A DNA stretch of 64,000 nucleotides, taken from an uncultured Candidatus Saccharibacteria bacterium (GTDB lineage Bacteria; Patescibacteriota; Minisyncoccia; Phycocordibacterales; PALSA-1337). Where the stretch lies: positions 20,709 to 84,708 of the forward strand of contig CAZMFR010000003.1 in NCBI GenBank assembly GCA_964565685.1. The letters run 5' to 3'. How positions within the stretch are numbered: the first letter of the stretch is position 1; the number at the start of each line of letters is the position of its first letter. A program made the translations under genes and the position numbers. Under the pieces are notes generated by a model. The model saw only the letters and a program-made list of their open reading frames with translations, searched no databases and was not told the DNA's origin. Of this stretch, positions 56,691 through 62,827 are shown piece by piece.

Positions 56691-57341
56691 ATCTTGAAAA
56701 CTGAAATGTGGAGCCGATTTTGAAACAGCTCCCGAGATTGGGATTTAACCAACATTATCCAGGGACACGTCCTGGGACTCTAGCAAACCAAACGCACCAA
56801 ATTTTCTATCGTCAGAGGTGCGACATTGCTCGTTGAGCTACTCGGGAATACGTTCGCAAGATCGGCTTGTGAAAAAGGAAAGACGCCGTACAGTGATAAT
56901 CGTGCGCACAGCGTTGTCGCATCCAATCAATCATTGGTTAAGCGGACGACGCCTTTCCAAAATTCCACATTTCAGTTTTCAAGATTCTGTAAAGTATAAA
57001 AGATTAAGGTGCGTAAATGTCGCAAACATATATTGTGACGTTTGGGTTTCCGGACGGGATGGACGGATTAGTACTTCATGGCTCAACACATTGCTGTGCG
57101 TACACCTAAAGCCTATCAACGTGATCATCTCTCACGGGTCTCATAATGATTATTAATCTTGGGGTTGGCTTCCCGCTTAGATGCTTTCAGCGGTTATCCA
57201 GTCCCGACATAGCTGCCCTGCGGTGCCGTTGGCACGACAGCAGGCAGACCAGAGGTCAGTTCAACTCGGTCCTCTCGTACTAGAGTCAAAGCCCCTCAAT
57301 AATCGACGCCTACAGTAGATAGGAGACCAACCTGTCTCACG

Positions 57342-57972
57342 CTTGAATTTCCCCGTATCGCTACGGGCAATGGACTATATTATTACCTTTTCTTTTTAAG
57401 GATGAAGGTAGCTGACGTGTAGTCTCTACGGGCAGTTATGGGTTTTACAGAGCAGGCAATCAAAAAGATTGCCTGATAAATCTTCCTTGAGATGGGAGGG
57501 GACCGCTTTCCGTTCGATCAAAGTCAGAACTGCTTTGGAGGCAGTCATAAACAAAGATCGATCGGCTTAGATTTAAGGTCACGCCTACACCGGACCACAT
57601 AACCTGCGACTGAATTCCTGGTCGCAAATCCATCTGGCTCTGGACTATCCCATCTCAAGAAATCACAAAGAACTATTTTGCTCTGTAAAACCCATAATTT
57701 TCCCTAGGTGTTACCGCTGTTGCGTTCCCGCAATCAGGGCTTCACCGATATAAGTCAACTGTGTACAAAGGGATTTCTCCCAATGACCGCCGTGAACAAG
57801 TCACATTCAGTGGTGGTTTGTAATCACTGATCCTCGGGATTCAGACTGTGAAAAAGCCAAATCAAAACTCAAAAGGCAAAACTCAAAATTTTAAAGCCAA
57901 AAGCTTACTTATAAATTCAATTCATGAATTCTACTTTTGCACTTTGCATTTTGCCTTTCAACTTTGCTCCTT
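57342..57972 (-). other. Insertion 1 in 23S domain VI (~630 nt, no ORF), a putative self-splicing intron
   Basis: It interrupts the conserved …CTGTCTCACG | ACGGTCTGAACCCAGCTC junction, which is contiguous in E. coli. It contains 12–15-bp long-range complementary pairs (57440-57454 with 57679-57693, and 57485-57497 with 57646-57659). Confidence 0.6.
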
Positions 57973-58305
57973 CACGGTCTGAACCCAGCTCGCGTATCTT
58001 TTTAATTGGCGAACAGCCAAACCCTTGGGACCTTCTCCAGCCCCAGGATAAGATGAGCCGACATCGAGGTGCCGAACTCCGCCGTCGATATGAACTCTTA
58101 GGCGGAACTAGCCTGTTATCCCTAGAGTAGCTTTTGTCCGATAATCTTCCCCTGCATCTAATGCAAAAGGTCGGTTCACTTGGCTCCGCTTTCGCGTCTG
58201 CTCGACAAGTACGTCTCGCAGTCAGGCCAGCTTGTGCCCATACACTATCGCCACGGTTTCCATTCGCGGCTAGCTGACCATTAGGCTCCTCCGTTACTTT
58301 TTAGG

Positions 58306-59092
58306 CATGTTGTTACATGTTCAGGATCTTGTTTTCCTTTAAATGAATGACCCCGCCGCAAACGGTGAGGAATTCTATTGACTAGATTATTGGATTAAAA
58401 TTTAATCCAATAATTTAATTCATTTTAAAGGAAAACGGGGACGCTTGAACACGATGCGAACATTTCTGTCGCATTCTTGCGGTCGCCCGCAAGTTCGGAC
58501 TATATCATCATCCTTCGCCACAAAACGGCTCAGGATGGCTAGCGTGTAGTCTCTGGGGAAGCAAACTTATACATTGGATAATGGAAGTGACACGGAACCA
58601 TTCACATTCATCCCGTGTCACTAATGGTGTTAACTGATAATTTAGAAAACGGAGGTTTCGTTTACTCGATAAAGAGCACGATTAAGTGAAACCATTCTCG
58701 GATTTCCCTGAACAGACTCGTCGCCTGACCAGCATGTGACATCTGTGGGAAACAACCCATTTCTACCTAGTCTTCGTAGATCAATTACTTTCCATTATTC
58801 AATGTACAAGCAAGCCTTTCCTGCTGATCGTCTGCATGTAAATATTTTCACTCTTGCGAGTAACTTGCATTCTAAGCCATCAAAGGCACAGAGTTTCCAG
58901 CATATAGCTAACTTTTCGATGCATATTGCTATGCAAAGTCCTCCTTTTTTATAATTGGCAGCGAGGAGCGAAATGAAAATAAATTTTCTTTTCGTCCGAG
59001 CGAACCAATTATATCGATTTTAATCGATATTTTTTTGAGGTGAACACCTCGTGCGGCGCCACGGATCGAGGATTCAAACAAAAGTTTAAATC
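58306..59092 (-). other. Insertion 2 in 23S domain V (~790 nt, no ORF), a putative intron
   Basis: It interrupts …CTCCTCCGTTACTTTTTAGG | AGGATAGCGCCCCACTAAAACTGCC, which is contiguous in E. coli. Confidence 0.55.
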
Positions 59093-59599: not shown

Positions 59600-60025
59600 C
59601 AGAGAAACTTTAGCTGCGGCCCGCACCATAAAACTCTCTTTAACCTGTCCAATTAAGAACAGAAAAAGAGAAAGGGTGGGCTGACTTCAGGAACATGAAG
59701 GGAGTGGCTTGTACGGGCATGATTAGCCACCACTCTAGGATATATTTAACCCACGCTCGTCAAAGCGAGGCGCTAGCCACTGGTCAATGATCTTGCGACC
59801 AAATCCAGCAACTTGAGATGTGCCAAACATCAATTTAGTCGCGAAATCGCGATCAATTATGTTTCCGCTTGTCCTAATGCACACCTCGAACCGTTTACAT
59901 CGTTACATCACTCCCTAGGAAGTGACCGATGCCGTCCTTATTTCAGAGGACGTGAATCTCATCATGTGTGGATTTTATCCACTGTTTCCTGTTGTCAGCC
60001 CATACACTTTTAGCTCTCAAAAGAG
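59600..60025 (-). other. Insertion 3 (~420 nt) closed by a 13-bp helix CCCGCACCATAAA/TTTATGGTGCGGG, either an intron or an expansion segment
   Basis: Extra sequence between the conserved GTGTTTTTGATAAACAG and GCCGAAGTTACGGC blocks. Terminal complementary arms. Confidence 0.45.
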
Positions 60026-60600
60026 CTTTATGGTGCGGGCAGGCCTTATACCGAAGGTACGGCCGCTTTTTTGCCGAGTTCCTTGAAGACCTCTCACTCG
60101 TTCGCCTTGGGCTACTCGCCCTGACCACCTGTGTCGGTTTGCGGTACGATTTGTATGAAAATATACTTAGAAGATTTTCTCGGAAGCATGCTTGGCATGA
60201 TCAGTCCCGGCGAACCGAAACCTACCCACGAAGCTGTGAAGTGCCATCAAAGGCAGGAAGCGGATTTTCCTACTTCCCTCCATCGCTTTATGAACTCAAA
60301 TCCAATAACGAGCCATGCGTACTATGCTCCGTCCCTTCATCGTTTAACATACAAGTCACGGAATATTAACCGTGCTTCCATCGGGTGCGACATTTGTCAT
60401 CCCCTTAGGATCGACTAACCCTTCGCTGATATACATTGCGAAGGAAACCTTGGTCTTTCGGCGTGCGGGATTCCCACCCGCATTGTGGTTACTCGTGCCA
60501 ACATTCTTACTTCTACACGCTCCAGCATGGCTCACGCCTTTGCCTTCAACGCAGAGTAGAAAACTCTCCTACCGCTTGCGAACTTCATAGAGGAGGCAAG

Positions 60601-60825
60601 AAATAAATCTTGCCACAGACACTTTTACAAGAAAAATGTCAAGAAAAAGGAACTGGCGTCTGTGCACACAGGAATTGAACCTGCACCTCTCACTCTCAAA
60701 ACACGGAGTACCTTTGTTGTAGCCAAGCCACCCTGTTCTGACAGAGATCGTTGGCATCGCCGGCCTGTTGATGTTCCAAGAAACGACAGAGTATGCCCAA
60801 TACACCACTACACAGACGTAAATTT
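60601..60825 (-). other. Insertion 4 (~225 nt) in a hairpin loop, closed by an extended stem CTTGCGAACTTCATAGAGGAGG / CCTCTATGAAGCTCGCAAG
   Basis: E. coli has only a small loop here (from memory). Confidence 0.45.
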
Positions 60826-62827
60826 TCCTCTATGAAGCTCGCAAGCCCTCAGTTTCGGTACCATGTTTAAACCCCGATTATCTGCGGCGCGGAATCTCTC
60901 GATGAGTGAGCTGTTACGCTATCTTTCAATGATGGCTGCTTCTAAGCCTACATCCTCATTGTCGGAGAAATTCCACCACCTTAAGCGTACTTAACATGGA
61001 TTTAGGGACCTTAAATGGAGATCAAGGGCTGTTTCCCTTTTGTCCGGTGGAGCTTAGCCCCCACGGACTTACTGCCGCGCTATGATCCAGAGTATTCGGA
61101 GTTTGATAGGTCTCGTGACCTTTCGGCCTGTCGAGATCTTCCAGTGCTCTACCCCTCTGGGGAACGCGCGACGCTATGCCTAAACATATTTCGGAGAGAA
61201 CCAGCTATTACCAGGTTCGATTAGCTTTTCACTCCTTACCACAAGTCATCGCAGAGAATTGCACAACTCTAGCGTTCGGACCTTCCTCCCGGTTTCCCGG
61301 AAGTTCATCCTGCTCATGGCAAGCTCACCTGGCTTCGGGTCTTTAGCAACCTACTAACGCGCTATTCACACTCGGTTTCCCTGTGGCTCCGGTCTCTCGA
61401 CCTTAGCCTGCAGGTTGCTAAAACTCGTTGGCTCATTCTTCAATAGGCACGCCACAACGGACCGCACACTATGTACTAAAATTTTTATACTGGACATTAG
61501 GGCCGACTTAAAGGAGTCGGCTGTGGAACAACAGTCATTTGGATAGTTTTCGCTTGCGCGACGATATTTTTGACAAAATTTCTCGTGTCAAAATGAGTCC
61601 AAATAACTGTTGCCCACTGCTCAATACAAAAATCACTGTGCACACTGTGCGACCCGCCGTGACTCTTTGTAAGCATATGGTTTCAGGTTTATTTCAACGC
61701 CCTTACCGGGCTACTTTTCACCTTTCCCTCACGGTACTAGTTCACTATCGGTCTAGAAGAGTATTTTGCCTTGCCGGTTAGTTCCGGCGGATTCCCCCGA
61801 GCCATTCGTGTCTCGAGGTACTCAAGAACAGAAACAAAGAAGATTTTTTATTTTCGAGTACGGGGCTATCACCCTCTGGGGCTGTGCTTTCCAGCACATT
61901 CTCCTAACAAAAAATTTTGTAACTCCTCTGCCAATAAATTGGCACGTCTCTGCCTTACTACCCCCAATCTAAATCGAATCGCACGACATGTCGCACGATA
62001 CGATTTAGATTGAGTTTGGGCTGTTTCGTTTTCGCTCGCCGCTACTTGCGAAATATCTATTGATCTCTTTTCCTCCTGGTACTGAAATGTTTTACTTCCC
62101 AGGGTGCGCTCGTATGCTAATAGTGCATACGTCATAGAGGTTCACTCTATGGGGTTTCCCCATTCGGACATCTCCGGATCAAAGGTTGCTCGGCACCTCC
62201 CCGAAGCGTATCGCCGCCACGCTGCGTCCTTCATCGCCTCTTCTAGCCAAGGCATCCACCATACGCTCTTGGATTCCCGTCAGGAAATCCAAAAACCACA
62301 ATATATGCTTGCTTGACTCGGAGGCCGCTTACAACGGACCTCGAGTCATTTTTCTCGAATCACGGACAGTCTTCAACATATCCGTGATTCGTTATTTACA
62401 ATGCATCCTTATCCTCATGCGAGGACTGCTCCCTGATGTTTACATCAAGGGTTGTCCACAACTTATGAACAGACCTTGCTCACAAGCGGATCTCGGATGC
62501 TACCTTAATTTTCTTTTACTTTACCCTCCGACAGACGGCTAGTTCGCTGTCCATCGGAGTATTCTGTTGTCAAAGTTACAGTCTTTCCGCCATTTTTTGA
62601 ACAAAAAACCGCTTAACGAAGCGGCTACAGCACGCTCAGTGAAGAGTGCACTATGGCCGTGTTAGGTTGAGGTTTTTTAACATATCTTTCTGAATAGGGT
62701 AAGTATATACGAAGCCAAAATAAAGTCAAGGAAAATATGGGTTATTTCGCATAAGTTAATACTGCAAGACAAAGCTAGAATTTATTTAGACAATTTTGAG
62801 TGTGAAAAAATAGAATCGATAAATGAT

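Follow-up and report, generated by a model that had tools for sequence, protein, structure and literature searches.

A 23S rRNA gene from a candidate phyla radiation bacterium with two probable group I introns and three insertions of intervening-sequence type at hairpin tips

A complete 23S rRNA gene stretched by five insertions

We analyzed a 64-kb stretch of bacterial DNA (contig CAZMFR010000003.1, positions 20,709 to 84,708; hereafter the window) that carries on its minus strand a complete 23S rRNA gene (~57050..62280), measuring 5.23 kb with its inserts and 2984 nt once all inserts are removed. Our best explanation, which we consider likely, is that the window holds a single 23S–5S unit of a bacterium of the candidate phyla radiation (CPR), within the Parcubacteria/Paceibacterota, whose 23S gene is broken by two group I introns, at E. 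coli positions 2262 (L2262, intron A) and 2593 (L2593, intron B), and by three insertions resembling bacterial intervening sequences (IVSs) at the hairpin tips of helices H25, H45 and H63. A sequence-only reading of the window had described a minus-strand 23S gene at this span, stretched to ~5.2 kb by insertions without open reading frames (ORFs), and Rfam, blastn and a leader–trailer stem bore this description out.

The Rfam model for bacterial large-subunit (LSU) rRNA, LSU_rRNA_bacteria (RF02541), matched the minus strand with 1909.9 bits. That match stops at 57921 on its 3′ side only through an artefact of alignment: the last 290 nt of the gene, placed by blastn against E. coli, lie beyond intron B. 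Against E. coli rrlB, blastn resolved the gene into seven collinear blocks running from E. coli position 14 to 2884 (62267..57067), with five large gaps between them (Table 1) and smaller extensions near E. coli positions 281–290 that total ~90 nt. The gaps agree to within a few bases with the coordinates and sizes previously read for five inserts. The E. coli numbering given with them was off: the site put near 2450 is 2262, and that of intron B, put in domain VI, is 2593, ~60 nt before the sarcin–ricin loop (SRL) and in what we take to be domain V.

The gene span follows from a processing stem of −64.9 kcal/mol, in which the 5′ leader of the 23S (62387..62274) pairs with its 3′ trailer (57060..56965). 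The SRL motif is perfect, and the motifs of the GTPase-associated center (GAC) and the peptidyl transferase center (PTC) are 2–3 bases off those of E. coli. With a core of 2984 nt and a perfect SRL, the gene therefore looks functional and not like a pseudogene.

Relatives were reached through an FtsW-like ORF (54398..55567) two genes downstream of the 5S rRNA gene. This ORF retrieved 80 loci from species-representative genomes, all of them CPR (Parcubacteria, Paceibacterota, Nomurabacteria, Yonathbacteria and others), with a top identity of 67%, and its closest relatives are metagenome-assembled genomes of Parcubacteria/Paceibacterota. On the evidence of this protein, the source organism is a CPR bacterium of the Parcubacteria/Paceibacterota, in agreement with the CPR host proposed by the sequence-only reading. 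Because the gene order 23S–5S–ORF–FtsW is conserved in relatives, the FtsW-anchored loci supplied ~45 related 23S genes or 3′ parts of such genes. Many of these relatives bear introns at L2593, L1931, L1917 and L2500. One metagenome contig, L091 (three-digit handles denote comparison loci, four-digit ones insertion sites), has 23S exons 97.7–99% identical to those of the window.

Table 1 Coordinates of the 23S–5S unit, its inserts and related elements. Positions are those of the window unless a comparison locus is named; a slash within a guide marks the boundary between its two pairing segments.
Feature	Positions	Strand	Remarks
blastn block, E. coli 14–281	62267..62008	-	
blastn block, E. coli 290–534	61909..61662	-	
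blastn block, E. coli 559–1163	61452..60847	-	
blastn block, E. coli 1186–1704	60573..60043	-	
blastn block, E. coli 1770–2263	59599..59096	-	
blastn block, E. coli 2263–2593	58305..57974	-	
blastn block, E. coli 2594–2884	57341..57067	-	
Gap, E. coli 2593/2594	57342..57973		632 nt
Gap, E. coli 2262/2263	58306..59096		791 nt
Gap in H63 (E. coli 1704/1770)	59600..60042		about 415–443 nt
Gap in H45 (E. coli 1163/1186)	60574..60846		about 245–273 nt
Gap in H25 (E. coli 534/559)	61453..61661		about 190–209 nt
Intron A, ORF-less group I intron	58306..59096	-	791 nt; after E. coli U2262, 5′ strand of H81, beside the P-loop
Candidate internal guide of intron A, AGGAGGA	58939..58945	-	directly 5′ of P2; read from sequence
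Intron B, ORF-less group I intron	57342..57973	-	632 nt; after E. coli U2593
Internal guide of intron B, CACG/GCGGUC	57785..57794	-	complementarity read from the exon sequences
H63 insert, IVS-type	59623..60036	-	414-nt interior; closing stem GCACCAUAAAGCUCU.../...AGAGUUUUAUGGUGC
H45 insert	60574..60846	-	interior 60599..60819; conserved ~21-bp closing stem GCUUGCGAGCUUCAUAGAGGA / UCCUCUAUGAAGUUCGCAAGC
Degenerate tRNA-like remnant in H45 insert	60654..60818	-	10-bp stem, ~120-nt variable domain, T-arm, CCA
H25 insert, IVS-type	61463..61651	-	189-nt interior; closing stem CGCACAGUGUGCAC.../...GUACAUAGUGUGCG
Small domain I helix extensions (~30 + 21 nt)	61910..62007	-	Rfam LSU inserts after model positions 282 and 312
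5S rRNA gene	56487..56593	-	3′ of the 23S; Rfam RF00001, 68.6 bits
tRNA or tRNA-like unit in H45 insert of L031	1708..1784		above Rfam gathering score
tRNA or tRNA-like unit in H45 insert of L090	3207..3378		above Rfam gathering score
tRNA or tRNA-like unit in H45 insert of L093	1338..1411		above Rfam gathering score
tRNA or tRNA-like unit in H45 insert of L085	595..740		above Rfam gathering score
tRNA or tRNA-like unit in H45 insert of L095	750..1053		above Rfam gathering score
tRNA or tRNA-like unit in H45 insert of L086	11490..11603		above Rfam gathering score
tRNA or tRNA-like unit in H45 insert of L017	5957..6031		above Rfam gathering score

Group I introns at L2262 and L2593

At L2593, U closes the 5′ exon and G closes the intron (...GACCGU/GAAGG...UUCAAG/CGUGAG, slashes marking the splice junctions). 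Homologous introns of 250–720 nt occupy the same site in 24 relatives, every one ending in G, and the site is empty in nine; the U...G termini are accordingly present in all 25 L2593 introns. Alignment of 15 of these sequences with RNAalifold recovered P2 (7 bp), P3 (6 bp), P4, P5, the base of P6, P8 (5 bp) and P9 (6 bp), with compensatory changes in 26 of the 36 consensus pairs. The internal guide of intron B pairs with the 3′ exon CGUG to form P10 and with the 5′ exon GACCGU to form P1, leaving a G·U pair at the splice site. Its ACGGCGG segment is invariant in the 15 aligned introns, and immediately after it comes a covarying P2 hairpin capped by a GNRA loop. Measured against a compact 300-nt homologue in L017, the excess length of intron B lies in a hairpin-rich 5′ (L1) domain and in a ~260-nt extension of P6 (57436..57697) closed by a perfect 19-bp stem. 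The long-range complementarity noticed in this insert by the sequence-only reading is thus real (19 of 19 nt), but it belongs to this peripheral extension and not to a ribozyme core. The Rfam Intron_gpI (RF00028) match of intron B spans only the 3′ core, P7–P3′–P8–P7′–P9 (57351..57479); two L2593 homologues, in L039 (55.5 bits) and L083 (51.1 bits), exceed the gathering score of 50.

Intron A matched the same model over the gathering score, with 52.6 bits at 58476..59012 (E = 1.7e-10). Here too U is the last base of the 5′ exon and G that of the intron (...CUAUCCU/CGAGG...ACAUG/CCUAAAAAG). The site is uninterrupted in 20 relatives, which read contiguously CUAUCCU-CCUAAA, and is occupied by homologous introns in L039 (299 nt, 67.4 bits) and L090 (553 nt, 58.6 bits); U...G termini are found in three of three L2262 introns. 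In this small sample (n = 3), RNAalifold recovered P2, P3, P4, P5, P5a and P8, and 20 of 67 pairs were compensatory. The excess length of intron A consists of a ~300-nt P6 extension and a 3′ tail past P9.

For intron A, the guide assignment is less certain. The best candidate, AGGAGGA, is Watson–Crick complementary to the ligated exons UCCU/CCU; the nucleotide that would face U2262 is A in the window and in L090, which is unexpected against the near-universal U·G pair, and G, the canonical wobble partner, in L039. Two other elements were rejected as guides: a 5′ hairpin (CGAGGAUU.../...AAUCCUCG) that begins at intron nucleotide +1, and an invariant GUGGCGCC that ends 3 nt before the splice site and whose CGCC is paired by RNAalifold with the conserved L9 loop GGCGA.

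Two minor observations concern the periphery of the L2262 introns. The 3′ tail of intron A contains a 47-nt element (58341..58387, minus strand) that is 89% identical to 36640..36686 on the same strand, directly downstream of the ORF at 36705..37820. Its GC-rich hairpin (CCUCACCG-YUUG-CGGYGGGG) leads into a U-rich stretch, which gives the element the look of a terminator or small repeat. The P6 extension of the L090 intron (~1170..1330, minus strand) contains an ORF of 52 codons encoding a highly basic peptide (MMKKRRRKKRKSILVDS...), with a ribosome-binding site GGAGG ahead of the frame as read by eye; inspection of intron A in the window, also by eye, found nothing that resembles it.

Introns A and B are ORF-less. 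As the sequence-only reading had held, the inserts have no ORF longer than 133 aa and no LAGLIDADG motif: the longest ORF touching the 23S region is an antisense frame of exactly that length (59968..60369), no stop-to-stop frame of ≥35 aa in any insert matched Pfam (10 longest frames), and the 154-aa LAGLIDADG-type ORF of the L2593 intron in L047 gave no significant tblastn match in any insert. The single tblastn "hit" for a homing-endonuclease remnant was dismissed because it came from translating the conserved ribozyme core in antisense (L008). No group II intron family was among the Rfam matches at E ≤ 1 over 56300..62700. The same reading had taken all five inserts for self-splicing introns. 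Rfam instead separates them, with intron A over threshold, the 3′ core of intron B under it, and no intron match at E ≤ 1 for the H25, H45 and H63 inserts; the claim holds, as far as group I identity goes, for introns A and B, and the other three are hairpin-tip insertions of IVS type.

From the boundaries, structure, covariation and distribution of these elements, we infer that introns A and B would be removed from the pre-rRNA by two-step, guanosine-initiated transesterification with ligation of the exons. Intron B appears equipped for this, with a guide that would align both exons through P10 and P1, a P2 with its GNRA loop, P3 to P9 and a terminal G. Intron A would rely on a core that covaries with two homologues and on a candidate guide that sets A opposite U2262. 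The additional length would be non-coding periphery, located in P6 in both introns, in L1 in intron B and in the tail past P9 in intron A.

In the Chlamydomonas chloroplast, the intron that hosts I-CreI is an L2593 group I intron. Others interrupt cyanobacterial 23S genes (Haugen et al. 2007, PMC1995217) and resemble intron B in their identical site after U2593, group I core and short P2. Compared by description, the cyanobacterial introns (~745 nt) have a P7.1/P7.2 extension and each encode a single-motif LAGLIDADG protein, whereas intron B is ORF-less and has its extra length in L1 and P6.

Hairpin-tip insertions in H25, H45 and H63

The remaining three inserts replace hairpin tips and continue the host helix with closing stems of roughly 12–23 bp. 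Each is strongly folded: the H25 insert reaches −99.7 kcal/mol (z = −10.4), its centroid coinciding with the minimum-energy structure; the H63 insert, with its long closing stem, reaches −183 kcal/mol (z = −9.4); and the H45 insert has z = −6.3. The distribution of the H25 and H63 inserts across loci was compared by pairwise blastn. L091 lacks both despite its near-identical exons, having the plain hairpin tips GUC-GCAA-GAC at H25 and GCCC-UUUAUUUAUUUAAG-GGGC at H63, and its 440-nt H45 interior is unrelated to that of the window although it lies between identical stems. The H45 and H63 hairpins are short in most relatives. The H63 interior had no Rfam match and no homologue in any locus compared. 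A miniature inverted-repeat transposable element (MITE) as the origin of the H25 and H63 inserts was unsupported, there being no second copy in the window or any locus and no target-site duplication at the empty sites.

Given their hairpin-tip location, double-stranded closing stems and sporadic distribution, the three inserts bear the signature of IVS-type elements rather than of introns. The sequence-only reading had set its introns against the alternative that the extra sequence is helix expansion; judged by sequence and fold, three of the five inserts do appear to be helix-tip extensions.

Leptospira is among the classical carriers of 23S IVSs. Such elements lie in H25 and H45 in Salmonella, Yersinia and Campylobacter (PMC8708148) and in Coxiella (PMC4990558), and in bacteria they are excised by RNase III without religation (PMC8708148). 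The window inserts share with them the use of H25 and H45, an extra stem at the hairpin tip and sporadic occurrence among close relatives, and RNase III excision would be expected for them as well. They differ in length (190–415 nt against ~100–200 nt), in the addition of a third element in H63, in lacking an S23p/IVP ORF and in belonging, at H45, to a family with tRNA-like modules. The closing stems at H25, H45 and H63 would be natural substrates for RNase III, whose gene, rnc, is retained in CPR genomes as a group (PMC12641178). The three tip insertions would then most likely be cut out without religation, giving a fragmented yet functional 23S rRNA.

The H45 closing stem recurs in L017, L031 and 13 metagenome loci, identified by a stem-pattern scan of metagenome contigs. 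It shows compensatory changes at four positions, and the interiors that it encloses range from 56 to 798 nt. In the window, the interior contains a degenerate tRNA-like remnant with an acceptor-like 10-bp stem (CGUCUGUGUA/UGCACAGACG), a canonical T-arm (GCAGG-UUCAAUU-CCUGU) and a 3′ CCA. The sole Rfam match within the insert is a weak local match of this T-arm to the tRNA model (13.4 bits, E = 5.5; RF00005 gathering score 29). ARAGORN made no call on the remnant at default settings; only when these were relaxed did it return a cloverleaf, with an 80-nt "intron". Against an expectation of 0.29, the window has six copies of the T-loop motif GGTTCRANTCC: four in called tRNAs, one in a tRNA-Ile half-copy beside the called tRNA-Ile gene and one in the H45 remnant.

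In the relatives, H45 interiors gave 11 tRNA matches over the Rfam gathering score (33–56 bits), from eight distinct relatives and all on the 23S strand. ARAGORN called tRNA-Ala(UGC), tRNA-Phe(GAA) and tRNA-Pro(UGG) in these inserts, along with units whose anticodon loops are malformed. A recurrent unit keeps the acceptor stem, D-arm, T-arm and ACCA end, its anticodon arm being swapped for 60–130 nt; the acceptor stem GUCGGGGUG/CACCCCGAC covaries to GUCAGGGCG/CGCCCUGAC in L091. L083/L088 and L089 belong to the family and have no tRNA-like unit. We dropped an encoded CCA as a mark distinguishing tRNA-like units from genuine tRNAs, since 16 of the 39 tRNAs in the relatives' loci encode it, as perhaps do one or two of the window's four tRNAs. 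No description of tRNA or tRNA-like units in bacterial 23S IVSs was found in the literature searched, the coverage of which was incomplete.

The mitochondria of Tetrahymena and Paramecium have split LSU rRNA genes whose parts are separated by tRNA genes. The relatives' H45 inserts are similar in placing a tRNA unit of the same orientation inside the LSU transcription unit, where tRNA processing would part the rRNA pieces. The organellar split lies near the 5′ end of the LSU and its tRNAs are functional decoders, whereas the H45 units mostly have defective anticodon arms and the window copy is a remnant.

The small extensions in domain I behave differently. Their sequence is also present in L084 (100%), L091 (98%) and L017 (78%) and is thus conserved rather than sporadic. 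A near-perfect 22-bp palindromic hairpin (61965..62012, minus strand) lengthens a domain I helix by ~30 nt; it is kept in the same three loci and so, in contrast to the three inserts of IVS type, represents a stable expansion in this lineage.

Competing readings and other features of the window

In the survey of Tsurumaki et al. 2024 (PMC11270868), 82% of CPR 23S genes had insertions of at least 100 bp, with a maximum of 16 per gene. By Rfam, 45% of the insertions were group I introns, 222 group I introns were ORF-less, and 469 of 968 insertions had neither an intron match nor an annotated ORF; short inserts at two classical IVS sites were read as RNase III-type IVSs. The survey also credits to Brown et al. 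2015 the observation that CPR rRNA insertions are removed from transcripts. The window agrees with these accounts in host group, in having several inserts per 23S, in the ORF-less group I introns that are common there and in the use of classical IVS sites. Its introns follow the survey's clustering of group I introns in the 3′ half of the 23S, where 2593 is among the named sites. We see no difference in kind, and the window sequences had no close match among the loci compared. The window 23S is therefore an instance of a documented CPR trait. The sequence-only reading had suggested that the introns may be new, and this stands for the individual sequences, their class having been catalogued already. 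One contrast concerns content: the word "tRNA" has zero occurrences in the survey, which mentions no tRNA-like content of inserts, whereas the H45 family has tRNA-like modules.

Several observations weigh against our explanation of the gene by two group I introns and three IVS-like insertions. Intron B reaches only 28.4 bits with Intron_gpI (E = 3e-5) and has an unusual domain of ~180 nt between its 5′ splice site and its guide. The candidate P1 of intron A is only 4 bp long, with A–U in place of the near-universal U·G at the cleavage site; the intron may self-splice less well, may depend on a protein or may have been assigned the wrong guide. At 190–415 nt, the tip inserts are at or over the usual IVS size of 100–200 nt, and H63 is, to our knowledge, outside the classical IVS sites. 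The tip inserts could also be retained as expansion segments.

That last alternative, in which only the group I introns are removed and the three tip inserts persist in mature 23S rRNA much as eukaryotic expansion segments and some mycobacterial and archaeal extensions do, strikes us as unlikely, although it has real points in its favor. The helices involved are surface-exposed and variable, the inserts fold stably by themselves (z from −6 to −10), the basal 21-bp extension of H45 is conserved in the lineage even where its interior is dispensed with (a 56-nt hairpin in L089), and E. coli ribosomes tolerate unprocessed IVSs (PMC8708148). A structural role is argued against by presence/absence and wholesale swaps of interiors between rRNAs that are 98–99% identical; CPR ribosomes are otherwise reduced, and whole tRNA-like units in homologous H45 interiors look like processing substrates rather than ribosome architecture. 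Removal of CPR insertions from transcripts, as the survey relays it from Brown et al., argues in the same direction. As this removal was reported for the class as a whole, it would equally suit the idea that all five inserts are self-splicing introns, excised and religated, as would the facts that two of them are group I introns and that all five are ORF-less and highly structured. We nevertheless regard a purely intronic origin as highly improbable. Besides the want of any group I or II model match at E ≤ 1, the H25, H45 and H63 inserts have no U...G boundary pair and no guide sequence, and they sit at hairpin tips, outside conserved single strands or helices, prolonging the host helix with long stems; members of the H45 family have only the stem in common and exchange interiors freely, as a conserved ribozyme core would not allow. 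The least probable reading of all, to the point of being negligible, takes the expanded gene for a chimera of the assembly or an rRNA pseudogene in decay. In its favor, rRNA regions pose difficulties for metagenome assembly, and the 23S is where the contigs of many relatives break off. Here, however, the exon blocks are all collinear and complete, the junctions are base-precise at sites also occupied in independent assemblies from other samples, leader and trailer pair, the SRL, GAC and PTC motifs are preserved as described above, and the 23S–5S–ORF–FtsW synteny is intact.

The H45 insert admits a further reading, which we offer tentatively. It may be, or derive from, an internal transcribed spacer with tRNA or tRNA-like modules, in which RNase P, 3′ tRNA-processing enzymes and RNase III, acting on the closing stem, would cut the 23S precursor. 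This is suggested by the above-threshold tRNA matches of eight relatives, confined to the 23S strand, by the ARAGORN calls and the units with aberrant anticodon loops beside them, by the recurring unit with its covarying acceptor stem, D-arm, T-arm and ACCA, and by the T-arm, 10-bp stem and CCA that the window copy still has; tRNAs in 16S–23S spacers and in organellar split rRNAs offer an analogy. Set against it, the window element falls below the normal threshold of every tRNA detector, its 10-bp stem misfits the 7+5-bp ruler of RNase P, L083/L088 and L089 do without a tRNA-like unit, and the units could be captured tRNA genes that are decaying and have no role. Moreover, leader pairing with the RCCA end is described as inhibiting bacterial RNase P (PMC9433436), and pairing of this kind is present in most ACCA-bearing recurring units (L085, L086, L091 and L095). 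Applied to the family as a whole, the proposal, equally doubtful at present, would be that these are undescribed 23S-internal spacers of a Parcubacteria clade, in which mimics of tRNAs or of their top halves serve as handles for RNase P and tRNA 3′-end enzymes that cut the 23S together with RNase III. On such a scheme the window copy would be a decayed member of the family.

Taken as two group I introns and three IVS-like insertions, the window 23S adds one more case to the documented CPR pattern of multiple insertions, and it supplies a base-precise annotation for rRNA phylogeny and read mapping that locates the ~2984-nt core, both intron junctions and the three IVS sites. The L2262 family, in whose candidate guide G and A alternate opposite the splice-site U, bears on how strict the U·G wobble is in vivo. 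The H45 family with its tRNA-like units would make it testable whether bacteria can fragment rRNA by means of tRNA-processing enzymes; if they do, this would be a bacterial counterpart, within rRNA, of organellar "tRNA punctuation". The family would also help account for the numerous CPR 23S insertions, 469 of 968, that are ORF-less, non-intron and uncharacterized.

Rfam gave no match to small-subunit (SSU) rRNA anywhere in the 64-kb window, consistent with the earlier statement that no 16S is linked to this 23S. In the relatives L017 (16373..17949) and L031 (17689..20469), the 16S lies 5–7 kb past FtsW and is not linked to the 23S–5S unit; that of L031 is interrupted by an insertion of ~1.1 kb, and the equivalent place in the window lacks a 16S.

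Two further RNA features were noted elsewhere in the window. At 40900..41140 (minus strand) lies a nested tRNA-Ile(UAU), made up of a 5′ half-copy (41138..41101), a 31-nt spacer, a complete tRNA (41068..40994), a 45-nt spacer and a 3′ half-copy (~40948..40909). The arrangement can be taken for an outer tRNA-Ile whose anticodon loop is split by ~150 nt holding a second full copy; only the inner copy is called by ARAGORN and Rfam, and the whole could be either an assembly artefact or a real tRNA within a tRNA. A gene for transfer-messenger RNA (tmRNA) at 44158..44566 (plus strand; Rfam, 81.1 bits) encodes a tag peptide, ANTVAKSSVRSPYFSMNSFAFALA, that exceeds the usual length of 10–11 residues.

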